Source: Welwitschia mirabilis (lineage: Eukaryota). From it: DNA of 52,986 nt. The DNA lies in contig JBOZIK010000001.1 in assembly GCA_051453625.1 (NCBI GenBank), positions 18,608,951 to 18,661,936 on the forward strand, read 5' to 3'. Under the pieces are notes generated by a model. That model searched no databases. It was not told the DNA's origin and was given only the letters and a program-made list of their open reading frames with translations. The position numbers and the translations under genes are program-made. Positions within the stretch are counted from its first letter, which is position 1, and each line of letters begins with the position of its first letter. Below, piece after piece: positions 757 through 34,647 of this stretch.

Positions 757-758
757 AT

Positions 759-4829: not shown

Positions 4830-5179
4830 GACAAAGGGGGAGAATATTTTGTATTTTCAAAACTCTGATGTACATTTGCGAAATCGTAATATAGTCAGTT
4901 TTCTTACAAATTTTGTGTAAAACGTTTTGTATTATTTTCTAGTTATTCTCTTACTATATTTGGCATCTCTTCAATTACATGTTTGTTAAATTGTCAGATA
5001 TCCAAGCATAATATAGCTAACAATATTTTTCTTACTCTGATCATGATTAGACATATATATCTATTTAGTGTTTTGGATTAAGTGTGTTAGGCAGGTCAGA
5101 TCCTTTAAACCGATTGCTAAGCCAAGGGGGAGCATTCTTTCTACCTTTTTGCAATTGTCATCATTAAAAAGGGGGAGAT
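4830..5179 (+). promoter_or_regulatory. Multiple polypurine tracts
   Basis: ACAAAGGGGGAGA (~4831), CCAAGGGGGAG (~5122) and AAAAAGGGGGAGAT (5166-5179) directly before TGTTG. Multiple PPTs are a known Sirevirus trait. Confidence 0.85.
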
Positions 5180-8160: not shown

Positions 8161-8274
8161 ACTTAAAGCGGCATAACTAAAGGGCTTCGATGTACAACAT
8201 GGAATGGTTAGAAGTTTAAAATAAATAACGAGGGCATAAAAATAGAGACTTGACTTCACCATTCTCTAAAAATA

Positions 8275-8800
8275 TCCCCACTGCGAAAGCACAAGCAAAT
8301 TGATTGGGTTCCTTTCAAATACCTCAAATCCACTTCACTACTTGTCAATGACTCTACCCATGGTTCCTCATGAAGTTGCTAAAAACAACAATAGTATATG
8401 TTGTGCCTAGTTGTATGAAAATAAAGCATTCATTAGAGATCATCTGACAATCTCCCCACTACGAAAGCACAAGCAAGTTGATTGGGTTCCTTTCATATAC
8501 CTCAAATCCACTTCACTAGTGAAACAATGACTCTACCCATGGTTCCTCATGAAGTTGCTAACAACAACAATAGTATATGTTGTGCTTAGTTGTGTGAAAA
8601 TAAAAGCATGTTTATTAAAGATCGTCTAACAATCTCCCTAGTACCAAAACACAAGCAAGTTGATTGGGTTCCTTTCAAATACCTCAAATCCACTTCACTA
8701 ATTGTCAATGACTACCCAGGGTTCCTCATGAACCTACTAACAACAAAACTAGTATATGTTGTTTATAGATGTGTGAAGATAAAAGCGTTCATGAGAGATC
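8275..8800. repeat. Tandem triplication (~180-bp unit) of a copia RT C-terminal segment
   Basis: AAGCAA(A/G)TTGATTGGGTTCCTTTCA.ATACCTCAAATCCACTTCACTA occurs near 8293, 8471 and 8653. Confidence 0.9.
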
Positions 8801-10526: not shown

Positions 10527-10960
10527 TGTTTTGGATAAACACGTGTTAAATTGTGAAGCCAAAGTTTATTTTTATTTCCTTGTTTGTTATATTCCTATGT
10601 TGACCCCAGTTGCTTGTACAAAGTGTATTTGGTTATAAAATTGCCTTGGCGTGGTTATTAAAATTAGTTAATCATAAAAGGAATATGGAGTTAATAGGTA
10701 GTTAGGGTACACTTGTGTCTTTAACCTAACTCCTCTCATATATATACACCTCAAGCCATTGAGGGAATAGGTGTATGGTATGCTTCAGGGTTATTTGTAT
10801 TTTCTGAAGCTCTTGTCTGCCAATAAGAGATCTTCACTGCTTTCTCGAGTATGTAGGCTAGCAAGAGGCCAGAACTCATTAAACATTTTTATGTGCTTTT
10901 GCTTTTGTTTCTGTTACACATTTGTTTATCTTGATTTATGCTATACTCATTTTGATAACA
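10527..10960 (+). mobile_element. Probable solo LTR inserted in the copia integrase
   Basis: TGTTTTGG...GATAACA, with a TATA-like tract and a GTAGGC...CCAGAAC U5-like motif. The integrase frame resumes on both sides. Flanks ACAAAA/ACATAA are an imperfect TSD. Confidence 0.6.
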
Positions 10961-12999: not shown

Positions 13000-13560
13000 C
13001 TGTCCAACACTTGCAGTCCTTCCATTCTCATGGATTTGAAGAACTCCCCACAATTGTATGAATACACTGCATGAAGGTTGGATGGACACCTTTTCTCCAA
13101 CCTCCCTCTTCTCTACTCTGCTTGGACATGATGGGATGTTCTGCTTCCCAAAACACTTATAACACAAAAAGCCTTACAAACACCCCTCATTACTGATTCT
13201 TGTGAAACGCAAAGTAAATTCAATAAAACATCAAAGCTAGAAGGCAAACAGAAAACGAAAACACACAAGCTTGATGAGGCTTGGGCCCTTTGTACCCTAC
13301 ATCTTCCAATCAATGCAAAGCTCTTGTTAATATCTACAAAGTCAAGGACAAAAGCTATCCTCCATAGCTTACAGCAGGGTGCACAATCAATTTCACAAAA
13401 GCCTGCTTTGTTCATAGTTCTTGACATTTATTTGCGTAAGATGAATTTACTCTTCCATTTTGTTTCCCAACTCTGCTCAAGTGATTATAGTAACCTTCAT
13501 TTCACTCATACTAGCATTTCATATGATTTAGACCCTTTCATTTGAATTGCTTTATGCTTA
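13000..13560 (-). mobile_element. Additional copia gag fragment
   Basis: FCLPSSFDVLLNLL (gag LxSLPxS-like) and a decayed zinc knuckle (YNCGE...). Confidence 0.45.
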
Positions 13561-14199
13561 TGTTCAAGCATTCTATTTTTATAGTCTTAGGTCAATCTAC
13601 TGTNNNNNNNNNNNNNNNNNNNNNNNNNNNNNNNNNNNNNNNNNNNNNNNNNNNNNNNNNNNNNNNNNNNNNNNNNNNNNNNNNNNNNNNNNNNNNNNNN
13701 NNNTTTAGACCCTTTCATTTGAATTGCTTTATGCTTATGTTCAAGCATTCTATTTTTATAGTCTTAGGTCAATCTACTGTAGAAGAATTTGTATGTTATG
13801 TCAAATGTATTTATGTCATTTGCCGAAATAGAAACATGCACTTGCAAACACCACGTTAGCTTGTTAGCAAAAGCATAGTCAGTACAACCTCATCAAAGTA
13901 TACCATAGAGATTGTGATGTCATCAATTTTCTACTCTCACTCACTGGCAACATTGTATGAATAGGCATTGATGATTTCAGAAGCTTCGTGTGTTATAATT
14001 ATGGGACTTGGCTCACTTGCTGCCTATTTCTCAATAAATGAGATGGGCCAAGTCCTTCTTAATCCTAGTCATAAGCTGACAAGGCATGTCCTTCTTAATC
14101 CTAGTCATTGGCTGACAAGGCGTGTGCCATGACATGTTCATAAGCCTGACATCCATGGACATCAATTTGTGCATTAGATTTTCGCACAGCTATTTCATT

Positions 14200-14320
14200 T
14201 TGCAAATTCAGAGTTGACAGATTTGTAATGGAGAAAGGAATGGCGCCATCAAAATTGTTTTGCCCAACGTTGAGATGTTGCAGCATAGATAAAGCACCAA
14301 ACTCCAGATGCATCCCTCTT
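14200..14320 (-). pseudogene. Plant extracellular LRR fragment (about 1.5 repeats)
   Basis: EFGALSMLQHLNVGQNNFDGAIPFSITNLSTL fits LxxLxxLxLxxNxFxGxIP. Confidence 0.8.
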
Positions 14321-15009
14321 AAGATGGAGAACGCTCAAACCTGAAAATATACGCTAGAAGAACGAAGGGGTCAAACTTGAAAATATACGTTGGCGGCCAT
14401 CTTCACGAGTCAAGTTACTAAGTCATTGACACCTTTGCGCAACATTGTTATGCCCACTGTTTGGAATGAAGTTGAGTAATCGTATTCCCCTTTCCACTTC
14501 CCTCATGTATCTGGAGGTTGCTGCTTCTATTAGGAACAGTCGTCAGCCATACACACAGCACAATCGGCAAGTTCACTACTGCTAAAATTATTCGAGAAAA
14601 CTGATCAGTAACATGGTCTGGATTAGCTTCCTCGTGGGAAATGAAAATTCAGTCTCCAGCCTCCTTCTTCTTGATCTCCTTGTGGATGTGAATTTCTGTT
14701 ATTCTTCTGAACATTCTTTGGTATCAAGGAATCCAAACGTAAGTTCTCACTGCGTTGCCCTGGATATCGGACACCATCTTTTCCAAAGTACTAGGAAACA
14801 TTACTTGCATTGCTTTCTGGTTTTGTTCTTGAAATACAAAGTGGCCCTGCATATTATACTTTTCAAAATGTGCCAAGGGAGGGATTCATCCACCAGTAAT
14901 AGGCGTTGTATTGTTATTTCCATTAGTATTTAGAGCACGTTGAGCGTTCTCCCTCTTTTGTGGCTCTATCTATGTAGAGGCAGCATAGATAAAGCACGTT
15001 GAGCGTTCT

Positions 15010-15190
15010 CCAAATACTATAGAAGTATCAGTCAGAGGATGAAAGCCCTGCACATTTTGCAATCCGAAATTGTAGCCTTGTCACTCTTGGTTTTCCTCCT
15101 ACCATATTTGCTATCAGTGGTGTGCAAGTATAAGCATCAGGTGGCGATCCAAAATTTTCCATTTCCTCTATCAGCTCTTCCATAGCACTA
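15010..15190 (-). pseudogene. PPR fragment, frameshifted
   Basis: MEELIEEMENFGSPPDAYTCTPLIA...; mirror of 32240-32420. Confidence 0.75.
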
Positions 15191-16299
15191 TAAAATTCAA
15201 TTATGAGGCCAGACTTCAAAAACAAGAGTGCCCTACAGAACTGGCATGAATATAACTAGCCAAGGCTAAGTAACATACAATGCTAAAAAATCATACCCAA
15301 AGAAAAATTACCTAAATCCAATCCTCATTACAAATTAAGAAAGAGAATATTTAAAAGTTTACATTAACATCATATTTTCTTCAATAAGCAGATGTGCAAC
15401 TAGTCATCTAATATGTCTACTTGTTAATAGTAGTATTACCTCAAGCTTGGCTACTCTTATTAGCAGACAAAAGCAAAGCACTAATAGAAATAAAGCAGAC
15501 AACTGCAAAGCACTAACAGCAAAGCTACCTCTACAATGTATTTATGCTTACACCCTCGCAAAGTTTAGGAAGACCAAAATCCATAAATTTTTTATAGTAG
15601 ATTACTCCATTACCATTTTTTACTTTCTATGAATGAGGTCCTTCCGTTAATTATGTTTATCAACATTTGAATCTTCTATGTTATGTTTTGATTCCCAGAT
15701 GTGTTTGTGTCTGTATACGTTCAAAGGTGCTATCCTGGGTTGTACCTGGCATAATTTCCTAGCACGCATCCTATGTGTTACATTGTGCTTATGCATTACA
15801 TTTTCTAATGCTTTCATGTTATTGCTGCCATCCCCTTTAGTTATGTGACTATCTGAATGTGAAGTAATCATTTCTGATTCTGATGCAGTCTATTGAAATG
15901 GCTTGCAGTTGTGACTATCACCATTATGTTTCACTAAACAATGATCATGAAAAGTAGTAGTTCTAAACTTTTCACTATTAGAGTTGTCCTGTATACATAT
16001 TTTAGCAGAGCACTATTTTCCTTCCCTGATGTTCATGCAGGTATATAAGCTATAAATTCTATGTATTTAGCATTAGGCATCTTCCACTTGTCTTAATAAA
16101 CTATCACAAGAGCTAAAAAGGTTGAAGCCTTAGGCATCCTCTGCATCTACATCTCTTTCTTGTATTTTTGTCTTAATAAATTTGGTGTAGAGTTTGGTTC
16201 TTTTGTTCAATTATAAACGGATAATCCAAAGTGTTCTCAAACATTAGAGGAAAAATGTATTAAGATTTAAATTTTAACTAACTGAATAAGTTTTGTACA

Positions 16300-18020
16300 G
16301 CACAAGCAACTTTTTCTTTTGACCCACAACCTCTCACCAGCTTTACTATATTCTCCATTTCACAAGTAGTCAGGTTCACAAAACTTGAAGCATTTGCTTA
16401 TTCATTTTCACCTACTAACATTTCTACCACCTCTCCTCCAGAAGCCTTTTTAATAACCTCTTCAACCCCCATAGTATCCTTGATAGTCAAACCTGTAAAT
16501 TTTTTTATGAGCATTGACTGTAGAACATCAATCAAGAGCTATCCAACCAAGTCCTCAGACACTTCTAAAATGGGCTTTGTCATGAAGTACAGTAGGAATC
16601 TTGGCACTGGCAACAAGGGGCAATGTGTTAAATGTATTACAAAGAGTGTTTAATTTTCTAACTCAATGTATGACTTCGTTGCAGTGCAAAAACAGGGGAG
16701 GTCTTCATTGCAATGCAAATGTTATTGCCTCTCATGATGTTGTTAATATTTTTGTGGGACTTCTTGGTTTCTACTTAATGAAGTTGTCATTAGTTGCTTG
16801 ACAAAGTGTCCAAAGACTGCCCACTTTGTAAGAGTGATACCATGAAAACAAAAGTGATAGAAAAAATTCTACACATTTTTCCACAAGCACTAGATCATCT
16901 TTGTACAGCAATTGCGGAATTGCTCCGTGTGGTCATGAATGACTTCTGCTGGAAAAGTTGTTGAACCTCTTTTTTTTAGCGTTGGCCTAACCTAGTCTTA
17001 TAACCTGGCCTAACCTGGTCATAATTGAGAAGTGAGTACCCTAGTATCCTACTGCCAAGTTCTTGTGCTGGTGCTCAGGAGAGCCAAAATGTTCTAGAAC
17101 TACATTGACGAATGTCCAGCCCACAGTTATTGTATCGAATGCCTTGCTTATATCCGGTTTAAGTAGTATTAATGGTCCTTGCTGGTGAATTGAAGTATTT
17201 CAGGTATCAGAATCACTTGATCAACTGTGTACCTTCCCTTTACAAATCCAGCCTGTTCTATGTTTATTATATCTGGTAAAATAACAGCTATTCTATTTGC
17301 TATGAATCTCGTGGGAATTTTGTACCTGGTTATGCAGAGGTTGATCAGCCTAATATCCTTTGGACATGTTGGCTTGCTGATTTTGGGCAATAGAGTTATC
17401 AAAATAGTGTTTACATTTTTGCCTAGGTGGTTTGTTCTCCAAAATTGGAAGATTGCATCTATCACATCCTTTCCAATAATATCCTACTAGTACTTGAAAA
17501 GATCAATCAGATAACCGTCCATCCCCTGATTCTTATTATGTTTGATACTGAATATTGTTTTCTTAATTTCCTCAAGGGTTGGTGCTTTGTTTAGTAGAGC
17601 AATATTATCCTCTCACAACCTTCTTTTGAGTGTACCAACCACTTCCTAAATAGTTTGCACCTCAAGTGTTGTATCTTCACTAGGAAACTTTTATAAAATT
17701 GCTCAATTTCCTGCTTTACTCATTCATAATCATATGACATTGTCCCGTTCTAAATAGTTATGCATTTTATTCTAATCTTGAAACACTTCACTAAAGTATA
17801 ATTGTGAAAGAACCATGTCCCAACATCCCCCATTGAGATTCAATCTGTGTTTGCTCTTTGGTACTCATAAATTCCTTCCCATTGCTGCAAATCATAATAG
17901 CTCTTTAAAAGTTCCCTTTCTCTAATTTTAGATTCTTCACTTCCTCCTTGGCACAACATCACGTGCTACAATTTTTCAATTTCCTGTATACAATTCTATT
18001 TCCTATGTTTCCAACACCTT
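16300..18020 (-). mobile_element. L1-type LINE ORF2 (RT) relic
   Basis: NTILITLLPK...PKDIRLINLC...IANRI...IINIEQAGFVKGR..DQV, KPDISKAFDTI, and LLYKDDLVL (YADD box). Confidence 0.85.
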
Positions 18021-18398
18021 AATGAATTTGCACTAAGATGAGACATATTTACGCAATGTCTCTATGGATTTCCTTGGTGTACAGTGAGAAAGATAAAGTA
18101 ACAAATTAAAATAAAACCCACAAATAAAATAAATAAAAAAAGAATTGTGTTTAAAATTTGATTAGAGTTTTGTAAAATTTTGATTAAAATCTAATTAGAG
18201 TTCTGTAGAATTGTGTTTAAAATTAGATGAGAATTTGATTAGAATTTTATGGAATTGTGTTTATCAAAGTTTAGTGTGTTTCCCAATTCCATAAATAGAG
18301 AAGGCAAATATTATCAAATAAGCTACCTCCAAAAAAAAAAGGTGAATTTCTATTAGCATTGGACTTCCACTTCATTTATCTCGAAAAGCCTTTTGCAG

Positions 18399-19050
18399 AC
18401 TACTCAATTACGAAAGTGACCAGCGGATCCAAACCCAAGGCTTTTACAACCAACGAGATAACTAGGGCCACTGAAAATTCCTCTAAAACTATTACAGAAG
18501 GAAGCTTTGGATTAGTGTTTCTGGGAAACCTAATAGATGGCCATCATATAGTGGCTAAAAGTACTCTCAGCTTTCTAAAGCCAAGGAAAAGAACAATTCC
18601 TAAATAAAGTACATTTTTTATAGACAAAAATAATATCTTGTGATTTTTATTTGTGAGTTTCTTAGATTACATGATTTCACTCTTTGACATGCTATGTCCT
18701 CATTTTAACGGCTTAAACTTTTATATCGGGCTAATCATAGACATTTGAATTCCTTATTGGAAAATAATAGATAGCAAAATGATTTCATGCTTGTTTAGGA
18801 ATACATGCCAGAAGGTCTCTCAAGGATCATGTTTATGTTATAGTCACAAGTCAATGTTGAAATAATTTTCCTTTTTCACCCTTTACATAGGTTGCATATC
18901 AATTTCCACATAATTTTCTCTCTTTATCTTATTTTGCATGCCCATATTTTGTTGAACATACCATGTTCATGGCGTATTGCAAGTCCAGAATCTAAGGGTA
19001 AGAACTTAACTTGAGAGAGAGCGTTAGCATAACATTACATGCTACTCAAG
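18399..19050 (+). pseudogene. Receptor-like kinase (LRR-I/malectin-like type) kinase N-lobe fragment, 3 exons, copy 1
   Basis: KAFTTNEITRATEN.SKTI.EG.FG.VFLG.L.DG, then HRHL.SLL...MLV.EYMPEG.LKDH.Y, then KNLT(W)...ITLHA.QG|GTAAAC. Splice sites are partly retained; stops and frameshifts present. Confidence 0.85.
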
Positions 19051-20529
19051 GTAAACTGGTACAATATACATTAATTGCACACTTCAATCAACAATATGAC
19101 AATATTTCTCAACCACTTGTCAACTATATTTCTCAGTCCCTCTCCAAATTCCACTGAAGCTCAAATGTCTGTCATGCATTCGAACTGGTCCACAACCACC
19201 TTCCTTCTAAAGTGAAGGTTTGATCTCCTTCACTACCACTTACATCAGATTACAGATCTGATTTTTTTCCATCCTAGTTACCTTTCCCAAGCTGTCCTCT
19301 TCTTGACATGAAGTCTATTTAATTCGAAATCATATCAAATCTTTAATTAGATTCTATTCTATTCCACTATCCAAATCAGATTTAGCTTATATCGCATCCT
19401 ATAGAAGTCATTTGTATTCTTGATAACTTGAATGTTAATGTTGTATTTCGCATTAACAAGACTGGCACAACTTGATAACCTTCTTCCATCACCTTGCAAC
19501 TTGCCCGAAACAGGCTTGTAGAGGTTACATATTGTCCTTTAGGTTTGTTATAAATAGGGATAACGATTATCCATATCAATTAATTGGTCTTATTGATTAA
19601 TGAAAAATTCTAACTGGATGCCCAAAAACATGCAAAAAGTCCATTACAGGGCCAAATCAACCTATAGGCTTCTCTACAAAAGCATGAATAAGGGGCACGT
19701 GCTGCTTCTGTGCAAGATGAACATAGGCAACTCTGAGATTTTCTATAATGCGAGCCTTTTGCTTACCACTTAATAGTTATTTCTTTTCCACCGAAATTGC
19801 ACCCAAATTATTCGGTAACTACAAACAATGCAAATAAGTGCAAATAATATTATAGAGTAAATCATCAAAGGCAACCATAGTCTCCTTTTTATTCTTTTTA
19901 CCACTTGTTGTTCGATAATCCATAGCAAGAAAAAGGATAGGTATCTCTATACCTGCATGTGTTATGTTAATAATGCTTTTAAAGCTGAAATTTACTTCAA
20001 ATTGATCTGTAAAATATTAGATTAATACTAAATAGCTCAAAATATATAAAATATTATAGCAACTAACGCAAAAATTAAGCTTTCCTATGAATCTGAAGCA
20101 TTCCCATCTATTGTAATTTTAAATTAGAAAATTTTAACAAATGAAACAAAGATGCAAGCCCTCCTCTTTTATTTGGGCTTGGGACCAGCATTAGGATGTA
20201 TTTCAACATGTAATTATACATCCTAATGGCAGAGTTGCCTGCATTAATACTTAATATTAGAGATCTACATAGTAATATATTATGAGAAAAAATATTTGTC
20301 TAAATTATTTAAAGATTTATACCTTACCTTCTCAGAAGTTATAGGCTGTAGACTGTAGTTGCTAATAGAAAGTAAATAGGCTCAAAATATATCAAATATT
20401 ATAGCAAAATAACAAACAACCATATTGTTAACATTACATTTAGGAAATAAAGATGAGATATCTAAAATGTTTTCTAATATAAACAAAACAAAATTAGCAA
20501 GCACAAAAATAGTAAGCTTCATTCAATAA

Positions 20530-22171
20530 TAGGCACATCAGAGTCATCCAAATGAATAGTGATACTTTTACTAGATGACTTAGATTGTCTTCTCCTCTAT
20601 TTTAGACTAATAAAACTCCTTAAGCGTTCTTTTGAATAGATCTATCTATCTACTGCAGAAAATGTAAGGGAAGAAAGCATTTTATCAACTGTCTTTTCAA
20701 TGCAAACCATGGCATCAACATCTTGTGGAAACATATATCGGAGTTTGGACGTTTTTCCCACACCCTATGTTGTATTACTTGAAGGTTTTCGATTTTTTTT
20801 TCTGACTAGAATCTTCAGGACCAGAATTCATATCAATTTTTTGTTCTTTCACATCAGCTTCCAAAATCACAGGTAGAGATGGATCAACCACTAGTTTATG
20901 GGAAAATGAAAAATTTTTGTCCACTTTGAAATCATCGATGCTTAGTTCATTCTTCTAAAACATGCATTTCCTTGCAAACTCTAAGCCTCTTGTTAGGATC
21001 ATTATTTTAATTATGTGCTTGCATACGCAACCTGTTTTGAACCATTGACATTCACACTCAATTACATACGAGTATGCCTTTGTTACATGGTACATTACCT
21101 CACATATATTCGGGTTCTAACTCCGAACATAATAGTCATCCTCACACATTACCAAACAAGCAATCTTTATTAGTAATGGCAATAGCCCTATCCCACAAAG
21201 CTTTGTCATCTTCTTGTGATCGATGATTCACAAGAAATTCAGCATCCTTAGGTCTTGCTTTATTCCAAAAATGCATTTGTGCTTGAGNNNNNNNNNNNNN
21301 NNNNNNNNNNNNNNNNNNNNNNNNNNNNNNNNNNNNNNNNNNNNNNNNNNNNNNNNNNNNNNNNNNNNNNNNNNNNNNNNNNNNNNNAGAAAATGTAAGG
21401 GAAGAAAGCATTTTATCAACTGTCTTTTCAATGCAAATCATAGCATCAACATCTTGTGGAAACATATGTCGAAGTTTGGACTTTTTTTCCACACCCTATG
21501 TTGTATTACTTAAAGGTCTTCGATTTTTTTTTTCTGACTAGAATCTTCAGAACCAAAATTCATATCAATTTTTTGTTCTTTCACCTCAGCTTCCAAGATC
21601 ACAGGTCGAGATGGATCAATGACTAGTTTATGGGAAATTGAAAAATTTTTGTCCACGTTCAAATCATCGATGCTTAGTTCATCCTCTGAAACATGCATTT
21701 CCTTGCAAACTCTAAGCCTCTTGTTAGGATCATTATTTTAATTATGTGCTTGCAGACGTGACATGTTTTGAACCATTGACATTCACACTCAATTACATAC
21801 AAGTATGCCTTTATTACATGGTACATTACCTCACGTGTATTCGGGTTCTGACTCCGAACATAATAGCCATCCTCACACATTATCAAACAAGCAATCTTTA
21901 TTAGTAATGGCAATAGCCCTATCCCACGAAGCTTTGTTATCTTCTTGTAATCGATGATTCACAATAAATTCAGCATCCTTAGGTCTTACTTTATTCCAAA
22001 AATGCATTTGTGTTTGAGAGAGGTACAAAATCAACCGGTCAACTCTATTAGATGAAGCACGCTTTTTGTTACTGAAAAACTTGTACTTTAGTAAACCATG
22101 ATAAGATTCAACTGCATTATTTGTATGTTGCTATGCATATGGTACATCACTATATACCTTTACCCATATAC
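20530..22171 (-). pseudogene. SWIM zinc-finger / MULE-like transposase fragment; two tandem partial copies (20530-21287 and 21388-22171)
   Basis: TNNAVESYHGLLKYKF...RVDRLI and YYVRSQ...YHV...IECECQWFKT.H.CKHI (CxCx7CKH SWIM motif). An intron with GTAAG donor and TTTCAG acceptor spans 22172-22274. Confidence 0.75.
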
Positions 22172-23094
22172 CTGAAAGCACAAATAACTATAAAAATAAG
22201 AAGCTATATAAATTCATTACTTTCGTTAATAATTATTTTTAAATGCAAAATAAAATTCCAAATAGTCAACTTACTTCTGTGCTTTGTTTAGTAGAGCAAT
22301 ATTGTCCTCACAGCCTTCTTCTGAGTGTACCAACCACTTTGTAAATAGTGTGCACCTCAAGTATTCTATCTTCACCAAGAAACTTTTATAAAATTGCTCA
22401 ATTTCCTGCTTTACTCATTCATAATCATATGACATTGTCTCTTCCTAAATAGTTATGCACTTTATTCTATTCTTCAAACACTTCACTAAAGCATAATTGC
22501 GAAAGAACCATGTCCTAACATCCCCCTTTGAGATCCAATCTGTGTTTGCTCTTTGGTACTCATACATTCTTTCCCATTGCTGCAAATCATAATAGCTCTT
22601 TAAAAGTTCCTTTCTCTATTTCTAGATTCTTCACTTCCTCCTTGGCACAACATCATGTGCTGCAATTTTTCAATTTCCTGTATACAATTCTAGTTCCTAT
22701 GTTTCCAACACCTTAATGAAGTGGCACTAAGATGAGATATATTTACGCAACATCTCTATGGATTTCCTTGGTGTACGGTTAGAAAAATAAGGTAGCAAAT
22801 TAAAATAAAAACATCAAATAAAATAAATAAGAAAAGAATTGTGTTTAAAATTGATTAAAGTTTTGTAGAATTGTGATGAAAATCTGATTAGAGTTCTCTA
22901 GAATTGTGTTTAAAATTAGATAAGAATTTGATTAGAATTTCATGGAATTGTGTTTTCCTTTATCAAAGTTTAGCGTGTCCCCCAATTCCACAAATAGATA
23001 AGGCAAATACCAAAGAAGCTAGCTCCAAAAAAAAAGGGTGAATTTCTATTAGCATTGGACTTCCAATTCATTTTTCTCGAAAAGCCCTTTACAG

Positions 23095-23740
23095 ACTGCT
23101 CAATTATGAAAGTGACCAGCGGATCCAAATCAAAGGCTTTCACAACCAACGAGATAACTAGGGCCACTGAAAATTCCTCTAAAATTATTGCAGAAGGAGG
23201 CTTTAAATCAATGTTTTTGGGAAACCTAACAGATGGCTATCATATAGTGATTAAAAGTACTCTCAGTTTTCTAAAGTCAAGGAAAGGAAGAATTTCTAAA
23301 TAAGGTACATTTTTGATAGGAAAAAATAATATCTTGTGATTTTTATTTGTGGGTTTCTTAGATTACATAATTTCACTCCTTGATATGCTATGTCCTTATT
23401 TTGACAGCTTAAACTTTTGTATCGGGCTATTCATAGACATTTGAGTTCCTTATTGGAAGATAATAGATAGCAAAATGATTTCATGCTTGTTTATAAACAC
23501 ATGCCAGGAAGGTCTCTCAAGGATCACGTTTATGTTGTAGTCACAAGTCAATGCTGAAATAATTTTCGTTTTTCACCCTTTATCAATTTCCACATAGTTT
23601 TCTCTCATCATCTTATTTTGCATGCCTATATTTTATTGAAAATACCATGTTCATGACGTATTGAAGGTGCAGAATTTGAGGGTAAGAACTTAGCTTGAGA
23701 GAGAGAGAGAGCGTTTGCATAACATTACATGCTGCTCAAG
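23095..23740 (+). pseudogene. RLK kinase fragment, copy 2
   Basis: KAFTTNEITRATENSSKIIAEGGFKSMFLGNLTDG; same exon layout as copy 1. Confidence 0.85.
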
Positions 23741-25199
23741 GTAAACTGGTATGGTATACATTAATTGCAAACTTCAACCAACAATATAACAATATTTCTC
23801 AACCACTTGTCAACGATATTTCTCGATCCCTCTTCAAGTTCCACTGAAGCTTAAATGTCTGTCATGCATTCAAACTGGTCCATAACCACCTTCCTTCTAA
23901 AGTGAAGCTATGACCTCCTTCACAACCACTTACATCAAATTACAGATTTGATTTTTTTCCATCCTAGTTACCTTTCCCAAACTATCCTCTTCTTTGACAT
24001 GAAGTCCATCTAATTCGAAATCATATCAAATCTTTAATTAAATTCTATTCTATTACACTATCCAAATGAGATTTAGCTTATATTACATCTTATAGAAATC
24101 ATTTGTATTCTTAATAACTTGAATGTTAATGTTGTATTTTGCATTAACAAGATTGGAAGAACTTGATAACCTTCTTTCATTACTTTGCAACTTGCCCGAA
24201 ATATGCCTGCAGAGATTGCATATTGTCCTTTAGATTTGTTATAAATAGGGATAACGATTATCCATATCTTAATTGATTGGTCTTATTGATTAATAAAAAA
24301 TACTAGCTTCTTTGGATGCCCACAAACATCCAAGAAGTCCATCACAGGACCAAATCAACCTATAAGCTTCTCTGCAAAAGCATGAATTAGGGGCACATGC
24401 TGCTTCTGTGCAAGATGAGCATGGGCAACTCTGAGATTTTCTTTTATGCGAGCCCTTTGCTTACCACTTAATGGTTATTTCTTTTCCACTGAAATTGCAC
24501 CCAAATTATTTGGTAACTACAACAATGCAAATAAGTGCAAATGATACTATAGAGTAAACCATCAAAGGCAACCACAGTCTCATCCTTATTCTTTCACTTG
24601 CTGTTTGAAATCTATAACAAGAGAAAGAATAGGTATCTCTATACCTGCATGTGTTATGTTAATAATGCTTTTAAAACTGAAATTTACTTTAAATTGATCT
24701 GTAAAATATTATACTAATACTAAATAGCTCAAAATATATAAAATATTATAGCAACTAACGCAAAAATTAAGCTTTCCCATGAATGTGAAACATTCTCATC
24801 TATTGTAATTTTAAATTAGAAAATTTTGACAAATGAAACAAAGATATAGGCCCTCCTCTTTTATTTGGGCTTGGGACAACATCATATAATTATACATCCT
24901 AATGGCAGAGTTACCTACATTAATACTTAATATTAGAGATCTATATGGTAATATGTTGTGAGAAAAAAATATTTGTCTAAATTATTTAAAAATTTATACC
25001 TTACCTTCTCAGAAGTTATAGGCTATAGACTGTAGTTGCTAATAGAAAGTAAATAGGCTCAAGATATATTAAGTATTATAGCAAAATAACAAACAACCAT
25101 ATTGTTAACATTACATTTAGGAAATAAAAATGAAATATCCAAAATGTTTTCTAATATAGACAAAACAAAATTAGCAAACACATAAATGGTAAGCTTCAT

Positions 25200-26095
25200 T
25201 CAATAATAGGCACATCAGATTCATCCAAATGAATACTGATACTTTTACTAGATAACTTAAATTGTCTTCTTCTCTATTTTGGAATAATAAAACTCTTTAA
25301 GTATTCTTTTAAATAGATCTGTCTATCTACTGTAGAAAATGTAAGGGAAGAAAGCATTTTATCAACTGTCTTTTCAATGCAAATCATAGCATCAACATCT
25401 TGTGGAAACANNNNNNNNNNNNNNNNNNNNNNNNNNNNNNNNNNNNNNNNNNNNNNNNNNNNNNNNNNNNNNNNNNNNNNNNNNNNNNNNNNNNNNNNNN
25501 NNNNNNNNNNAGCTTCCAAGATCACAAGTTGAGATGGATCAATCACTAGTTTATAGGTAATTGAAAAATTTGTGTCTACTTTCATATCATCTATGCTTAG
25601 TTCATTCCTATAAAATATGTGTTTTCTTGCAAATTCCAAGCCTCTTGTTAGAATCATTATTTTGATTATGTGCTTGCATAAATGACCTGTTTTGAACCAT
25701 TGACATTCACACTCAATTGCATACGAGTATGCCTTTGTTACATGGTACATTACCTCACATGTATTCGGGTTCTGACTTCGAACATAATAGCCATCCTCAC
25801 ACATTATCAAGCAAGCAATCTTCATTAGTAATGGCAATAGCCCTATCCCACGAAGCTTTGTTATCTTGTTGTAATCAATGATTCACAGTAAATCCAGCAT
25901 CCTTATGTCTTGCTTTATTCCAAAAATGTATTTGTATTTGAGAGAGATATTTAATCAACCAGTCAACTCTCTTAGATGAAGCACGCTTTTTGTCACTGAG
26001 AAACTTGTACTATAGTAAACCATGATAAAATTCAATTTCATTATTTGTATGTTGTTGTGCATATGAAACATCATTATATACCTTTGCCCACACAC
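25200..26095 (-). pseudogene. SWIM/MULE-like fragment, copy in the second unit
   Basis: CEDGYYVRSQ...IECECQWFKTGHLCKHIIK. Confidence 0.78.
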
Positions 26096-26204
26096 CTGAA
26101 AGTACAAATAATTATAGAAATAAAAAGCTATATAAATTTGTTACTTTGGTTAATAATTATTTTTATATGCAAAATAAAATTCAAAATACTCAACTTGCTT
26201 CTTT

Positions 26205-27176
26205 TTACCCTTCATAATCCTTCTAAAAGAAAGATAACACCCTTTTCATGTGCAATATTTCTTTTTAATACTTGGAGGAAAAGTAGTACTATTTTTATCA
26301 AGTGTACCATTCTTTCATATGAATACTAATGAGTTATAATTATGCTTGATATTAGAGTTAACAAGTAACAAATAAGATGACTTAAATACCTTATTATTAG
26401 TATTTGATTTTGATTCTACTACTTCTTTTGTTTTGAAAGTAATTAATTTGTTCACATCTTTCTCAATTATAAAAGTTTCTATCTGAGAAACGTGAGTAAT
26501 AGGAATAGAAAGCATGGAACCTTCATTTTTGTAGTGAATAAATAACTTTAGTTGTCGTTGAGAGCATCTTATTATTATCATGTACCAAAGTCTTTAATGG
26601 TTTTGTAAACTTCAATTTATCTTTAAGATTAACATATTTGTTAAATGAAATAAGATAAAATTCTTTCTTTAGTCAATTTATGATTAATTTTTTGCATTAG
26701 TTTTAATAAGTTTCTTGATTCATCTGAAAATGAATTTCTTGTGTCAATAGTAGTATTTAACATGTGAGCAGAAATCGAAAGCTCTTAACATATTAGTATA
26801 GTTAAATCCCTTATTAGGTTGATCATAATCCTTTAGCATAATGACTAATGTTTCTAATGGGATGTTATTAATAGGCCAACAATTTTCATCATCATGTCAT
26901 GTATGATTGTTTTTAAAAAACTAATATCATTTTTTAAGGAACATTAGTTGGTTCATCTAAAGCAACTATTTAGATAATTTTCTATTAAGAATGGATGTCA
27001 TCCTTCCATATTCATTATTTGAAAAATAGCTAGATTTAACCTTGTAAAAATAGATAAGCGTATAACTATTACTTTTATCTTTAACTTCAGATGTCATAAT
27101 CTCAAATACATTATCTTTAAAAGTAATATCACAATCTTCATCTAATGTAAAATTCTGAGGCATTTTTATTTTTGTT
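26205..27176. repeat. Palindrome loop; direct homologue of 44173-45168
   Basis: Colinear match from TTAC.CTTCATA.TCCTTCTAAAAGAAA to GGCATTTTTATTTTTGTT, with one short deletion in this copy. Confidence 0.92.
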
Positions 27177-27304
27177 CTAGTTATTTGGCTATCCCATGAT
27201 AAACAAAGTAAGTTGAGTATTTGGATTTTGCATATAAAAATAATTATTAACCAAAGTAACTAATTTCTGTAGTTTCTTATTTCTATAATTATTTGTGCTT
27301 TCAG

Positions 27305-28230
27305 GTATGTGGGCAAAGGTATATTGTGATGTACCACATACACAACAACATATAAATAATGTAATTGAATCTTATCATGGTTTACTAAAGCATAAGTTTC
27401 TCAGGGACAAAAAGTGTGCTTCATATAAAAGAGTTGACTGGTTAACTTAGCGTCTCTCTCAAGCACAAATACATTTTTGGAATAAAGCAAGACTTAAGGA
27501 TGTTGGATTTATTATGAATCATCCATTACAACAAGATAACAAAGCTTCGTGGGATAAGGCTATTGCCATTACTAATGAAGATTGCTTGCTTGATAATATG
27601 TGTGAGGATGGCTATTATGTTCGAAGTCAGAACCGTAATACACGTGAAGTAATGTACAATGTAACAAAGGCATACTCGTATTCCATTGAGTGTGAATGTC
27701 AATGGTTCAAAATAGGTCATGTATGCAAGCACATAATTAAAATAATGATTCTATTAAGAGGCTTGGAGTTTGCAAGGAAACGCATATTTCAAAGGAGTGA
27801 ACTAAGCATAGATGACTTAAAAGTGGATAAAGATTTTTCAATTTCCCATGAACTAGTGGTCATCTTGGCCTGTGATCTTAGAAGTTGATGTGAAAGAACA
27901 AAAAATTGATATCAATTTTGGCCCTTAAGATTCTAGTCAAAACAAAAAAAAAAAATCGAAGACCTTCAAGTAATACAACATAACGTGTCGAAAAAAAAGT
28001 CCAAACTTCGATATATATTTCCCCAAGATGTTGATATCATGATCTGCATTAAAAAGACAGTTAATGAAATGCTTTCTTCCTTTACATTTTCTACAGTAGA
28101 TAGACAGGTCTATTCAAAAGAATGCTTAAGGAGTTTTATTATTCCTAAATAGAGAAGAAGACAATCTAAGTCATCTAGTAAAAGTATCAGTATTCATTTG
28201 GATGACTCTGATGTGCCTATTATTGAATGA
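27305..28230 (+). pseudogene. SWIM/MULE-like fragment, inverted copy
   Basis: Intron 27208-27304 (GTAAG..TTTCAG), then MWAKG... and IECECQWFKIGHVCKHIIK. Confidence 0.78.
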
Positions 28231-29704
28231 CGCTTGCTATTTTTGGGCTTGCTAATTTTGTTTTGTCTATATTAGAAAACATTTTGGATATCTCATCTTT
28301 TTTCCTTAAATGTAATGTTAACAAATATGGTTGTTTGTTATTTTACTCTAATATTTGATATATTTTGAGCCTATTTACTTTCTATTAGCAACTACAGTCT
28401 ACAACCTATAACTTCTAAGAAGGTAAGATATAAATTTTTAAATAATTTAGACAAATATTTTTTTTCTCATAACATATTACCATGTAGATCTCTAATATTA
28501 AGTATTAATGCAGGTAACTCTGCCATTAGGATGTATAATTACATGATGTTGAAATACATCCTAACGCTGGTCCCAAGCCCAAATAAAAGAAGAGGGTTTG
28601 CATCTTTGTTTTATTTGTTAAGCTTTTCTAATTTAAAATTACAATAGATGGGAATGCTTCAGATTCATGGGAAAGCTTAATTTTTACTTAAGTTGCTATA
28701 ATATTTTATATATTTTGAGCTATTTAGTATCAGTATAATCTTTTACAGATCAATTTAAAGTAAATTTCAGCTTCAAAGACATTATTAACATAACACATGC
28801 AGGTCTAGAGATACCTATCCTTTCTTTTGCTATGGATTATGAAACAGCAAATGGTAGAAAGAATAAGGAGGAGACTATGGTTACCTTTGATGGTTTACTC
28901 TATAATATGATTTGCATTTATTTGCATTGTTTGTAGTTATCGAATAATTTGGGCACAGTGGAAAAGAAACAACTATTAAGTGGTAAGCAAAAGGCTCGCA
29001 TTAAAGAAAATCTCAGAGTCGTCCATGCTCATCTTGCACAGAAGCAGCATGTGTCCCTTATTCATGCTTTTGTAGAAAAGCCCATAAGTTGATCTGGCTC
29101 TGTAATAGACTTCTTAGGTGTTTTTAGGCATCCAGAGAAGCTAGTATTTTTCATTAATCAATAAAACCAATTAACTGATATGGATAATCGTTATCCCTAT
29201 TTATAACAAACCTAAAGGACAATATGCAACCTCTACAGGCCTGTTTCAGCCAAGTTGCAAGGTGATGAAAGAAGGTTATCAAGTTGTTCCAATCTTGTTA
29301 ATGCAAAATACAACATTAACATTCAATTTATCAAGAATACAAACGACTTCTATAAGATGTGATATAAGCTAAATCTGATTTGGATAGTGGAATGGAATAA
29401 AATCTAATTAAAGATTTGATATGATTTCAAATTAGATGGACCTTATGTCAAAAAAGAGGACAGCTTGGGAAAGGTAACTAGAATGGAAAAAAGTCAAAGC
29501 TGCAATCTGATGTAAGTGGTTGTGAAGGAAGTCAAAGCTTCACTTTAAAAGGAAGGTGGTTATGGACCAGTTCAAATGCATGAAAGACATTTGAGCTCTA
29601 GTGGAACTTGGAGAGGGACCGAGAAATATTGTTGACAAGTAGTTGAGAAATATTGTCATATTGTTGATTAAAGTTTGCAATTAATCTATACTATACCAGT
29701 TCAC

Positions 29705-30357
29705 CTTGAGCAGCATGTAATGTTATGCAAATGCTCTCTCTCAAGCTAAATGCTTACCCTCAGATTCTAGACCTGTAATACGCCATGAACATAGTATTTT
29801 TAACAAAATATGGGTATGCACCACAAGATAAAAAGAGAAAATCGTGTGAAAATTGATATGCAACCTATGTAAAGGGTGAAAAACGAAAATTATTTCAACA
29901 TGGACTTGTGAGTATAACATAAACGTGATCCTTGAGAGACCCTCCTGGCATGTGTTCATAAACAAGCATGAAATCATTTTGCTATCTATTATTTTCCAAT
30001 AAGGAACTCAAATGTCTATGATTAGCCCGATACAAAAGTTTAAGCTGTCAAAATGAGGACATGGCATGTCAAGGAGTGAAATCATGTAATCTAAGAAACC
30101 CACAAATAAAAATCACAAGATATTATTTTTGTGTATAAAAAATGTACCTTATTTAAGAATTCTTCCTTTCCTTGGCTTTAGAAAGCTGAGAGTACTTTTA
30201 GCCAATATATGATAGTCATCTATTACGTTTCCCAGAAACACTGATCCAAAGCCTCCTTTTGCAATAGTTTTCGAGGAATTTTCAGCGGTCCTAGTTATCT
30301 CGTTGGTTGTGAAAGCCTTGGGTTTGGATCCGCTGGTCACTTTCATAATTGAGCAGT
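29705..30357 (-). pseudogene. RLK kinase fragment, copy 3 (inverted)
   Basis: KAFTTNEITRTAENSSKTIAKGGFGSVFLGNVIDD. Confidence 0.85.
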
Positions 30358-30744
30358 CTGCAAAGGGCTTTTCGGGATAAATGAATTGGAAGTCCAATGC
30401 TAATAGAAATTCACCTTTTTTTTTTTTTGGAGCTAGCTTATTTGATATTTGCCTTCTCTATTTATAGAATTCAGGGACACGCTAAGCTTTGATAAGGGAA
30501 AGCACAATTCCACGAAATTCTAATCAAATTCTCATCTAATTTTAAATACAATTCTACAGAATTCTAATCAGATTTTAATCACAATTCTACAAAACTCTAA
30601 TCAAATTTTAAACACAATTCTTTTTCTGTTTATTTTATTTGTGGGTTTTATGTTAATTTGTTACTTTATTTTTCTAACCATACGCCAAGAAAATCCATAA
30701 GGATGTCGCATAAATATGTCTCATTTTAGTGCACATTCATTAAG

Positions 30745-31986
30745 GTTTTGAAAACATAGGAAATAGAATTGTATACAGGAAATTGCAACATGTGATGTTA
30801 TGCCAAGAAGGAAGTGAAGAATCTAAAAATAAAGAAAAGGAACTTTTAAAAAGCTATTATGATTTGCAGCAATGGAAAGGAATGTATAAGTACCAAAGAG
30901 CAAACACAGATTGGATCTCAATGGGGGATGTTGAGACATGTCACAATTATGCTTTAGCGAAATGTTTCAAGAATAGAATAAAATGCATAACTATTTAAAA
31001 AGGGACAAGGTCATAAGCTCATGAATGAGTAAAGCAGGAAATTCGGCAATTTTATAAAAGTTTCCTGGTGAAGAAACAACACTTGAGGTGCAAACTATTT
31101 AGGAAGTGGTTGGTACACTCAGAAGAAGGTTGTGAGAGGACAGTATTGCTCTACTAAACAAAGCACCAACCCTTGAGGAAATTAAGCATACAATATTCAG
31201 TATCAAACATAATAAGAAGCAGGGGATGGACGGTTATCTGATTGATCTTTTCAAGTACTACTAGGATATTATTGGAAAGGATGTGATAGATGCAATCTTC
31301 CAATTTTGGAGAACAAACCACATAGGCAAAAATGTAAACACTATCTGGATAACTCTATTGCCCAAAATCAGCAAGTCAACATGTCCAAAGGATACTAAGC
31401 TGATCAGCCTCTGCATAACTAGGTACAAAATTCTCACGAGATTCATAGCAAATAGAATAGTTGTTATTTTATCAGATATAATAAACATAGAACAGACTGC
31501 ATTTCTAAAGGAAAGGCACATAGTTGATCAAGTGATTCTAATACATGAAATACTTCAATTCACCAGCAGGAACCATCAATATGACTTAAATTGGATATAA
31601 GCAAGGCATGAGATACAATAATTGTGGGCTGAACATTCATCAATGTAGTTCTAGAACATTTTGGCTCTCCTGACCACTAGCACAAGAACTTGGCAGCAGG
31701 ATACTAGGGTACTCATTTCTCAATTATGACTAGGTTAGGCCAGGTTGCCAACGCTAAAAAAAGAGGTTCAACAACTTTTCCAGCAGAAGTCATTCATGAC
31801 CACACGGAGCAATTCTGCAATTGCTGTACAAAGATGATCTGGTGCTTATGGAAAAATGTATAGAATTTTTTCTATCACTTTTGTTTTCATGGTATCACTC
31901 TTACAAAGTGGGCAGTCTTTGGACACTCTGTCAAGCAACTAATGACAACTTCATTAAGTAGAAACCAAGAAGTCCCACAAAAATAT
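30745..31986 (+). mobile_element. LINE RT relic, inverted copy of 16746-18020
   Basis: NTIWITLLPK...KLISLC...IINIEQTAFLKERHIVDQV. Confidence 0.85.
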
Positions 31987-32239
31987 GTTGTAATGAGCAT
32001 TGGATTTAAGTAATGTAAACTTTTATTTGAATTTTAAATATAAATGTAGAAATTCAAAACTTGTTCAGTTAGTTAAAATATGATGTTAATGTAAACTTTT
32101 AAATATTCTCTTTCTTAATTTGTAATGAGCATTGGATTTAGGTAATTGTTCTTTGGGTAAGATTTTTTAGCATTGTTCATGCCAGTTCTATAGGGCACTC
32201 ATGTTTTTGAAGTCTAGCCTCACAATTTAATTTTATAGT

Positions 32240-32420
32240 GCTATGGAAGAGCTGATAGAGGAAATGGAAAATTTTGGATCGCCACCTGATGCTCATACTT
32301 GCACACCACTAATAGCAACATATGGGAGGAGGAAAAATAAGAGTGACAAGGCTGCAATTTCGGATTGCAAAATGAGATCGCAAGGCTTTCATCCTACGAC
32401 TGATACTTTTACAGTATCTG
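32240..32420 (+). pseudogene. PPR fragment (about 2 motifs)
   Basis: MEELIEEMENFGSPPDAHTCTPLIATYGRRKNKSDKA...KMRSQGFHPTTDTFTV shows the P-class PPR pattern EM...G..PD..T...LI..Y twice. Confidence 0.8.
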
Positions 32421-33109
32421 GAGAACGCTCAACGTGCTTTATCTATGCTGCCTTTACATAGATAGAGCCACAAAAGAGGGAGAACGCTCAACGTGCTCTA
32501 AATACTAATGGAAATAACAGTACAATGCCTATTACTGGTGGATGAATCCCTCCCGTGGCACATTTTGAAAAGTATAATATGCAAGGCCACTCTTTATTTC
32601 AAGAACGAAACCAGAAAGTAATGCAAATAGTGTTTCCTAGTACTTTGGAAAAAGATGGTGTCCGATATCTAAGGCAACGCAATGAAAACTTACATTTGGA
32701 TTCTTTGATACCAAAGAATGTTCAAAATGATAACAGACATTCGCATCCACAAGGAGACCAAGAAGAAGAGGGCAGAAGACTGAATTTTCATTTCCCACGA
32801 GCAAGCTAATCTAGACCTTGTTACCGATCATGTTTTCTCGAATAATTTTAGCAGCAATGAACTTGTCAATTGTGCTGTGTGTATGGTTGACGACTGTTCC
32901 TAATAGGAGCAGTAGCCTTCGGATACATGAGGGAAGTGGAAAGGTGAATACAATTACTCAAATTCATTCCAAATAGTGGGCATAACGATGTTCTGCTGAG
33001 CTGTCAATGACTCAGTAACTCGACCCATGAAGATGGCTGCCAGCGTATATTTTCAGGTTTGAGCTCTTCATTCTGTCAGCGTATATTTTCAGGCTTAAGC
33101 GTTCTCCAT

Positions 33110-33230
33110 CTTAAGAGGGATGCATCTAGAGTTCGGTGCTTTATCTATGCTGCATTTTCTCAATGTTGGGCAAAACAGTTTTGATGGTGCCATTCCTTTC
33201 TCCATTACAAGCTGTCAAGTCTGAAGTTGC
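33110..33230 (+). pseudogene. LRR fragment, inverted copy
   Basis: EFGALSMLHFLNVGQNSFDGAIPFSIT. Confidence 0.78.
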
Positions 33231-33927
33231 AAAATGAAATAGTTGTGCGAAAATCCAATGCACAAACTGATGGCCATGGATGTCATGCTTATGAACATGT
33301 CATGGCACAAGCCCTGTCAGCCAATGACCAACATTAAGAAGGAGATGCCCTTTCAGCTTATGACTAGGATTAAGAAGGACTTGGCCCATCTCATTAATTA
33401 AGAAATAGGTCGCAAATAAGCCAAGTCTGCTATCCTGAAACAAATGGTTATCTTTTGGAACGAGTTATGCATATGTAACCAATTAGCAATGTGAATTGCA
33501 TGACATGTAATTGTATAAAAAGCATACGCCACACTGAGGTGGGGACACATAGGACAGCTAGTGCTTCTTGCTTGAGATAAGTCTTTGGAACATGGGAAAA
33601 TAAAAGGAATAATTGAGATCAGTCGTTGGAACATTGAAAGATAAAAGGAATAAAGCCTGAAATTTCAAAGAAGCAGCCTTACGAAATAAAAGCAGGTGAA
33701 CATCAGTACGTGCATAAAACATGAATGCCACTGTAAGTAAAAAGGCGTACTTTGAGAACATCCATGAGCTGCTTCCTTCGTTCAATGCATTGAGGTAATA
33801 AATTATCCTCTGGAAANNNNNNNNNNNNNNNNNNNNNNNNNNNNNNNNNNNNNNNNNNNNNNNNNNNNNNNNNNNNNNNNNNNNNNNNNNNNNNNNNNNN
33901 NNNNNNNNNNNNNNNNAAAAGGCGTAC

Positions 33928-34647
33928 TTTGAGAACATCCATGAGCTGCTTCCTTCGTTCAATGCATTGAGGTAATAAATTATCCTCTGGAAATAAGTTA
34001 TTCAATTCTTCCTCGAAACCCTTCCAATCTTTCGCGGCATTAGCAGGTGGCTCTCTTATGTGCTCTAAAACGACCTGAACATGCAAAAAGGTATTTTGAC
34101 CTACCAAAACGGAACAAAATTTACGATAAAAGTTCCACCTAACAAAGTAAAATGAATCTGAATTATGCTGGATGTTAACCTGGAACAAATTCCGAAAATA
34201 AGTATTGGATGTTCTATTTATTGCAGCGAGCCAATTCAAATTCTAAAGAAAACCTATTTTGAGGGCTATCTACAGGAACGGGATAAGTTATAGCAATGAA
34301 AAGGCTACCTCTATGGAAAGGCGTAAAACAAGTTCGGAAGCGTCATCTGAAACCGCATCCAAGGAATCAAGTAAATTTGATCTAATTATCTGGCTGCGAT
34401 TCTTTCTTGTACTACTGAAGGAGGAATCGTTGAACGAGCATTTTTTAAAAATAAGCTCTGAAAACGAAACAAAGCACTCAATCAAACTCAAAGAAGCAAT
34501 CAGTCCTCTAACTAGTTAAGCAAACTGCTGAAATTCTGAAGTACCTTTGAGCAAACAAGGACTCACATCCCTGTTGTTTAATAGCTTTTCTACGATCCAT
34601 GCCCAACATAAGTTCAAACCTTTCGCTCTTTCTACTTGCCGTAACAT
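33928..34647 (-). CDS. 5' part of an uncharacterised host gene (exons 34647-34545, 34457-34309, 34074-33928); the N-terminus resembles the helical domain at the start of plant TRF-like / PHD-associated proteins
   Basis: GT-AG introns with consistent phases (1, 0) give an open 133-aa frame: MLRQVERAKGLNLCWAWIVEKLLNNRDVSPCLLK/ELIFKK...ELVLRLSIE/VVLEHIREPP...QLMDVLK. The region is CpG-rich, unlike its surroundings. The family assignment is from memory only, and downstream exons are unresolved. Confidence 0.7.

Follow-up and report, generated by a model that had tools for sequence, protein, structure and literature searches.

Several described systems resemble, each in part, a palindromic locus of the gymnosperm Welwitschia mirabilis that is the subject of this report. 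The locus lies in a stretch of 52,986 nucleotides (assembly GCA_051453625.1, contig JBOZIK010000001.1, forward-strand positions 18,608,951 to 18,661,936), hereafter the window, and consists of three copies of one mosaic unit, A and B in tandem and C inverted, 86-90% alike. The host is a gnetophyte with a GC-poor, heavily methylated genome of 6.8 Gb, as reported in the consulted portion of PMC8275611. The nearest counterpart is Mu killer which, in the excerpts available of PMC3440606 and PMC10827316, shares three features with the locus: part of a Mutator transposase gene is duplicated in inverted form, one terminus recurs at both outer ends, and the adjoining gene is proposed to read through the repeat. 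The Welwitschia arms differ from Mu killer in being 6-8 kb long, 9-10% diverged and old, and in holding the 3' (SWIM) end of the transposase gene, not the 5' promoter end. The locus also adds host-gene cargo, a fragment of a long interspersed nuclear element (LINE), a twister ribozyme candidate and a tandem copy, and any silencing by it is putative.

Gene capture by Pack-MULEs and other transposable elements (described in parts of 10.1101/777037, PMC13477047 and PMC6446971) offers a second likeness, namely a non-autonomous relic akin to Mutator-like elements (MULEs) that carries several host fragments and has retained one intron. Here, however, no target site duplication (TSD) is found, the whole arm is inverted and not the terminal inverted repeat (TIR) alone, and one terminus is duplicated in place of two ends. 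Composite Ac/Ds insertions formed by alternative transposition (10.1101/2020.01.07.897926, in part) also contain inverted, fractured pieces, with a transposon or flanking promoter giving double-stranded RNA (dsRNA); those are hAT elements, recent, with small interfering RNAs (siRNAs) shown, whereas the present locus is MULE-like, ancient and known from sequence. Arabidopsis repeats of the IR71 type, according to excerpts of PMC10827316, are comparable as multi-kilobase imperfect fold-backs and potential RDR-independent siRNA sources; dicing of the Welwitschia RNA is again what we infer.

On balance, and with moderate confidence, we read the locus as a MULE relic laden with cargo that underwent a Mu killer-like inverted duplication long ago; it is probably transcribed, and its siRNAs would be aimed mainly at transposons. 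What is shown directly is the anatomy, together with two joints and the cargo. In a defective Mutator-like element the SWIM transposase gene would have been missing its 5' part, and the element would have carried a short twister-headed insert, a piece of a LINE and remnants of three or four host genes at the least. Local copying, probably by template switching in repair or by aberrant transposition, would have produced one inverted copy (C) and one tandem copy (B), with a 1-kb filler common with a site 18 kb off. Read-through RNA would then feed Dicer as an endogenous inverted repeat, yielding a mixed siRNA pool mainly against MULE and LINE families; cross-talk with donor genes would be incidental in such a scheme, and the arms would not be kept by selection.

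The repeat anatomy was derived from self-BLAST of the window, and the coordinates of the features are collected in Table 1. The preliminary description took 14003-26202 to be a palindrome arm; this stretch proves to be copy A followed by the tandem partial copy B, with the inverted partner, copy C, at 27183-33429. The likeness of the arms (1.4-4.6 kb, 89-90% identity, BLAST E=0) is well past chance, and the inner end shared by the copies falls within the transposase intron. Kimura two-parameter distances are 0.086 (A-B), 0.091 (A-C) and 0.104 (B-C), a nearly star-like divergence, and private changes per copy are similar in number (125, 153 and 164); thus the three copies are about equally old. 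With the rate adopted in PMC8275611, 2.2e-9 per site per year, the age comes to 20-24 My; with 1.8e-8 it would be 2-3 My. Short templated duplications are present within the cargo.

Table 1. Coordinates of the mosaic copies, their identified pieces and the adjoining gene, in window positions
Feature	Position	Strand	Counterparts	Evidence and remarks
Copy A of mosaic unit	14003..22278			self-BLAST; 100-N gap at 21288-21387
Copy B, tandem partial copy of 17582-22278	22279..26202			90.1% to A; 100-N gap at 25411-25510
Spacer or loop	26203..27182			88% direct copy of 44173-45174, 18 kb off (self-BLAST)
Copy C, inverted copy of A without the 15379-16745 block	27183..33429			self-BLAST
Multi-copy element terminus, TIR-like	14003..14170	+	mate 33295-33429	starts GGG; 50-bp stem-loop; 36-bp subterminal repeat
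LRR fragment, plant-type, no intron	14203..14307	-		Pfam LRR_4 E=0.008; top PDB matches are plant LRR-RLK chains
Possible bacterial-type (organellar) uS17 fragment, moderate support	14622..14753	-		Pfam E=4e-4, under cut-off; PDB uS17 E=2e-4
PPR fragment, no intron	15031..15195	-	C 32243-32416 (+)	Pfam PPR_2; PDB PPR chains
Block in A alone	15379..16745			self-BLAST
LINE ORF2 fragment, linker and start of reverse transcriptase	17044..17965	-	C 30744-31700 (+)	RVT_1 E=2.6e-4; linker read from translation
RLK-type kinase fragment, three exons, two introns	18299..18997	+	C 29744-30460 (-)	exons to about 18608, 18712-18837 and 18940-18997
Twister-headed short unit	19959..20236	-	C 28516-28796 (281 bp)	flanked by 8-9 bp direct repeat adjoining the cut site
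Twister candidate, copy A, best kept	20155..20241	-		55.2 bits, E=4e-10; predicted cut between 20237 and 20236
Twister candidate, copy B, 19-bp deletion in P3/P4	24847..24917	-		49.1 bits
Twister candidate, copy C, one P2 mismatch	28511..28600	+		48.8 bits; predicted cut between 28515 and 28516
3' part of MULE-type SWIM transposase gene with preceding intron end	20640..22278	-	B 25274-26202 (-); C 27183-28150 (+)	
Expressed flanking gene, CpG-rich, pointing into copy C	33751..34647	-		EukProt matches; spliced reads in X15 and X18

Four sequencing runs, out of 24 listed, were mapped at 80% likeness on 26203-33816 only, that is, on one arm and the spacer. X5 is a DNA run in contigs, under organism label B, whose depth does not equal copy number. 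X15 and X18 are mRNA runs of raw reads without strand information, about a quarter of each being used. X12 consists of contigs labelled 'RNA?'; it is read as RNA because two of its joints are common with the raw RNA runs and absent from X5, and because the copy profile of X5 is not shown by it.

A misjoining of haplotypes or paralogues during assembly could in principle imitate such a structure. The window was scaffolded from short reads and contains 15 N gaps, many of them flanked by 77-nt overlaps, and the 77-mer after the gap at 21288 is the same as that before the gap at 25411. Across the first gap, in copy A, 20657-21287 and 21388-22018 overlap at 94%, and a further copy may be hidden there; the outer part of A is placed by scaffolding across one gap. 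The tail of B, the spacer and C, however, stand in one gap-free contig. The inversion joint (26203/27206) is present in one X5 contig and the joint of A and B (31166>27225) in both X5 and X12, so that both joints recur in other runs, one of these under a second organism label. As a divergence of 9-10% is also large for alleles, an assembly artefact seems highly improbable.

The innermost identified piece of both arms, derived from the transposase gene, carries a SWIM domain match (E=0.003-0.006) and is collinear with residues 450-601 of a 620-aa Cryptomeria protein, itself with a MULE domain match just under the Pfam cut-off. No intact transposase was found, only this portion, which contains stops, and a homologue search with it returned nothing at E<=0.001. 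Single positions of the SWIM piece have variants in 23-26 X5 contigs and the listed positions of the LINE part in 1-3; summed X5 depth is 457-715 over 27219-28742 versus 10-38 over the LINE part. These many diverged copies identify the piece as part of a multi-copy transposase and not of a host gene, so that the preliminary description was right about its presence and wrong about that label. Both outer ends of the locus halt at the same terminus sequence. Beyond 33427, mixed flanks occur in 22 X5 contigs, 12 X15 reads and 14 X18 reads (agreement 0.43-0.61), and 11 X5 contigs extend the terminus family sequence inward. Since the same end is found with heterogeneous flanks in other copies, a dispersed element must end here.

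The locus is probably transcribed through its arms, as read-through from the gene on its right-hand side. The exon at 33928-34074 (minus strand) of this gene is 100% identical to two EukProt Welwitschia mirabilis proteins derived from transcripts, and one of the two follows the frame of the locus through the preceding exon, with 4 of the first 10 residues different. The ratio of observed to expected (o/e) CpG is 0.95 in the gene vs 0.2-0.36 elsewhere. A search of the window for its next exon found none, and this exon could sit in an N gap or past the left end; an intron of more than 33 kb is possible. Pfam returned nothing for the gene and the ESM Atlas only low-recognition leads. Compared with P0002, the copy of the gene at this locus has a frameshift and a shorter stretch in exon 2. 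Within X12, near-exact contigs of C (2-3 differences) have depths of 108-129 and a B-type contig 127, the spacer having 12. One X12 contig of depth 56 is without 33435-33527, a stretch that has GT-AG ends on the minus strand (joint as read).

Polarised C>T changes are an independent observation, being more frequent on the chromosomal minus strand (122/1401) than on the plus strand (80/1518; p=0.0003; in another count, 135/1587 vs 93/1731). All three copies share the direction (p=0.13 for A, 0.026 for B and 0.027 for the inverted C), as do all methylation contexts, with significance for CHH only, and there is no bias by element orientation (p=0.38). The bias follows the chromosome and is compatible with long-term minus-strand transcription, and also with a replication bias. 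A small tandem repeat 5 kb leftward leans the same way (8/81 vs 4/117).

A number of points weigh against the reading as a transcribed, Mu killer-like MULE relic. On the side of transcription, the other joint of the spliced X12 contig (32805/33426) is non-canonical, and X12 is a single run whose RNA nature is guessed. X15 and X18 supply 144 and 179 reads, just 27 and 25 of them at 99% identity or above, with depth under 6, and with 20 and 22 of 30 bins covered (10 and 8 empty), respectively. The C>T bias is not significant for copy A alone, and replication could also cause a strand bias of this type (PMC10030826, in part); the read-through hairpin model is disputed even for Mu killer, as seen in excerpts of PMC3440606. 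On the side of the element, no TSD is present, there being no match of 5-12 bp within 6 bp of the outer ends, nor is there a TSD of 7-12 bp around single copies. No named MULE TIR matches the terminus, which is also less repeated than the SWIM part, so that terminus and transposase may belong to different families. MULEs are defined in PMC6446971 (the portion consulted) by long TIRs and TSDs of 8-11 bp; the element would accordingly be called MULE-like and, for want of a TSD, not classed as a Pack-MULE.

Some of these features suit a different origin, in which a Helitron-type or break-repair patchwork had taken up the MULE piece as cargo and the terminus belonged to an unrelated small element, or in which transcription ran outward from the spacer and gave RNAs of the same sense, unable to pair. 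The missing TSD, the stepwise change of copy number along the arm and the shared inner end in the transposase intron would all fit. The Helitron ends 5'-TC and 3'-CTRR, however, are found neither at the shared boundaries nor in the loose-end consensuses behind 33427, and outward transcription is at odds with a C>T bias tied to a single chromosomal strand whichever way a copy is oriented; such an origin is considered rather unlikely. The origin and artefact alternatives overlap with the other readings.

That a hairpin is physically possible, as previously claimed, is supported. In the minus-strand RNA 93-95% of columns pair when G:U is allowed, and the predicted fold of the inner 2.4 kb has 626 arm-to-arm pairs; the plus strand folds equally well. 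Full pairing is expected for about 30% of 21-mers with G:U, the longest runs being 93-145 nt, and for 12-16% without. Divergence is flat over cargo exons, introns and other parts (5-13% per 200 columns), with no homogenisation. If pairing were under selection, A>G changes should be favoured too, and these are balanced between the strands (55 vs 52). For lack of such a bias, selection on the hairpin was rejected; the arms are not kept by selection and undergo neutral decay. Welwitschia makes 21- and 24-nt siRNA and expresses DCL2/3/4 (PMC8275611, in part), and Dicer-like proteins of these three classes cleave endogenous inverted repeats (PMC10827316, in part). An siRNA output from the locus is plausible and would be mostly transposon sequence.

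The same data may be read more plainly as an inert relic, the RNA being noise or ordinary read-through within an intron and seldom reaching Dicer, with no silencing beyond the Pol IV siRNAs of any repeat. Neutral decay of 9-10%, a transition excess of 2.2-3.2, CpG o/e of 0.25-0.36, flat divergence without homogenisation, sparse mRNA reads and the small share of 21-mers paired without G:U all agree with inertness. The arms in X12 are nevertheless about 10x deeper than the loop, as if paired stems survive, and the share of paired 21-mers does rise with G:U. Inertness is held to be rather unlikely, though the most probable of the alternatives, and the reading as a Mu killer-like source of siRNA is retained.

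From the outer end of A inward, the order of the cargo is terminus, leucine-rich repeat (LRR), possible uS17, pentatricopeptide repeat (PPR), the block found in A alone, an unassigned piece, LINE ORF2, the three exons of a receptor-like kinase (RLK), twister and 3' transposase part, the kinase being opposite in orientation to every other identified piece. All pieces of the preliminary description (LRR, PPR, kinase, LINE reverse transcriptase and SWIM) are indeed present in mixed orientation, and its estimates of about 1.5 LRRs and 2 PPR motifs come close to the 1.4 or so and 1.6 or so found. The twister, the multi-copy terminus, the uS17-like piece and the expressed flanking gene were absent from it. 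Copy C matches Pfam PPR_2 at E=1.7e-5 and copy A at 0.021, X18 reads of a PPR relative continue upstream of 32234, and a homologue search with the PPR piece gave nothing at E<=0.001. Some RNA reads depart from the locus inside the uS17-like piece. LRR and kinase lie on opposite strands about 4 kb apart, and hence are not one RLK gene in place. An ARM-like reading of 16296-17000 (minus strand) was not confirmed: Pfam Arm gave E=0.19 only and further searches were negative. A joint found in RNA only (X12, X15 and X18) skips 184 bp at 32865-33050 in C, without canonical splice ends in the window; this stretch may be filler missing from the donor transcript.

For the kinase, three exons had been announced. 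Exon 2 is supported by a match to FERONIA (E=0.0014), exon 1 has only weak RLK matches (best E=0.68), and exon 3 is called from a reading of motif and splice donor only. A spliced relative skipping the 104-bp first intron is present in X12, X15 (3 reads) and X18 (1 read) and absent from X5; the intron was thus retained here and capture took place at the DNA level, as first proposed. In X12 the relative is 90% identical to exon 2 and 79% to exon 1, and about 64% and 16% of the respective 21-mers are expected within 2 mismatches of it. The refuting condition first named, fragments too diverged for 21-nt matches, does not hold for exon 2.

The function first suggested was trans-silencing of the PPR, LRR and RLK families by a retained locus, or else a role as the forerunner of a new MIR gene. 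Donor-like transcripts 79-90% identical to the cargo are expressed, captured fragments raise donor methylation (10.1101/777037, PMC13477047) and endogenous inverted repeats are suspected starting points of MIR genes (PMC10827316), as far as the consulted parts of these sources report. LRR, PPR and kinase together, however, make up 1050 of the 6247 bp of arm C (17%), MULE and LINE 40%. Cargo exons show no extra conservation or pairing, the A>G bias is lacking, and no MIR family was matched in the window by Rfam at E<=5. The possible ribosomal-protein scrap suggests random capture. In conifer (PMC13477047) and maize (10.1101/777037), again from excerpts, methylation of donors is raised and the expression of syntenic donors is not lowered, and gene capture by transposable elements is very common in gymnosperms (PMC13477047, in part). 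Donor cross-talk would accordingly be an expected side effect, not a special function, and a locus existing to silence host families or give rise to a MIR gene appears very unlikely.

One twister ribozyme candidate is present in each copy. The Rfam scan at gathering level gave no match in the window; the scan at E-value level matched RF03160 (type-P1 twister) once per copy and nowhere else in the window, over the full model, with 48.8-55.2 bits (E=4e-10 to 3e-8) and thus below the gathering score of 67.2. Loops L1, L2 and L4 all match the published domain table (PMC8501958). In copy A, P1 pairs at 7/7, P2 at 4/4, P3 over 13 bp and P4 at 2/3, and U at -1 is replaced by C. Copy B has four P1 changes with pairing kept in all, one of them changed on both sides. 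Activity is uncertain on account of a C.A mismatch at the base of P4 in all three, the loss of P3 in B and the P2 mismatch in C, and the twister columns are no better kept than the rest (8/74 variable vs 13%).

The twister heads a short unit without an open reading frame. The 8 bases ahead of the cut site recur 281 bp downstream (the 8-mer in 106 of 20000 shuffles), and this 8-9 bp repeat holds in C and B, with A differing at the -1 base; it could be TSD-like as in Perere-3 or, equally, the end of a tandem unit. Perere-3, an RTE element of Schistosoma (PMC8501958, in part), and tandem non-LTR retrozymes (PMC7761336, in part) likewise begin their units, of 281-350 nt, with a type-P1 twister, next to whose cut site lies a direct repeat that supplies the 5' strand of P1. 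The locus differs in having no RTE ORF after the twister, a gymnosperm host and a unit in a MULE 3' region. Retrozymes as described use hammerheads; here the ribozyme is a twister and the circular fold of the unit is no stabler than shuffles (z=-1.1 to +0.3). No tandem ribozymes were found, each copy holding one twister. Evidence that an older tandem copy lies upstream of the twister is borderline, with local scores of 64-69 vs shuffle maxima of 61-65. Direct repeats of 35 bp, about 345 bp apart, bracket the twister at 20029-20062/20373-20407 (C 28343-28377/28693-28726), and are possibly such an older copy of the unit. X5 joints 28324>28693 and 28726>28393, which link these two repeats and were considered as empty or tandem sites, were not counted, having about 30 letters on one side and possible mis-mapping.

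Self-cleavage may have left a trace in X12. A contig of a diverged relative, at depth 1838, covers 28457 and, by bin depths, cannot reach far past 28490; a loose end of 29 letters resembling 28486-28514 stops one base before the twister cut site. The two are presumably the same contig, and an abundant self-cleaved RNA of a twister relative (28434-28514) is possible; a fork in the graph could also end the contig. The consulted portions of the literature record plant twisters confirmed in rice only, with function not known (PMC10226581), their enrichment in Copia and Gypsy elements in a survey (PMC11933835) and truncated twisters at RTE 5' ends in a review (PMC7761336). No report of a twister in a gymnosperm or a MULE was found there; the original twister lists or the Rfam full family may hold gymnosperm entries. 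When metagenome and viral contigs were scanned with a twister pattern, 0 matches came up. Relative to the minus-strand transcript, the twister of C is antisense and those of A and B are sense. It is conceivable, and in our view doubtful, that they belong to an undescribed gnetophyte family of short twister retroelements, SINE- or retrozyme-like, self-cleaving in vivo and amplified in the MULE family, and that the sense twisters of B and A cut the Mu killer-like read-through hairpin and so set the amount of dsRNA directed at the transposon and the captured genes.

Outside the palindrome, the region 1-6420 reads as remains of a Copia-type LTR retrotransposon, with gag-like sequence at 820-1710, RT/RNaseH-like sequence at 1-435 (minus strand) and 2533-3250, and LTR-like sequence at 536-730/6204-6397. 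Long purine-skewed, decayed stretches that read as LINE-like flank the palindrome in opposite orientations at 9200-13500 (minus) and 36300-41100 (plus), with no BLAST similarity to each other. Further local duplications are found at 6529-7561 (522-bp period, 95%), 8265-8800 (179-bp unit x3) and 51524-52986 (996-bp period, 97%).

The natural Mu killer-like loci described in the consulted literature are recent maize events; the present locus is old and in a gymnosperm, a species with public small-RNA and methylome data. Its 90-nt twister candidate, with a possible cut in vivo, is cheap to test. Being old, the locus permits asking whether inverted repeats silence a transposon family or donor genes for millions of years or decay.

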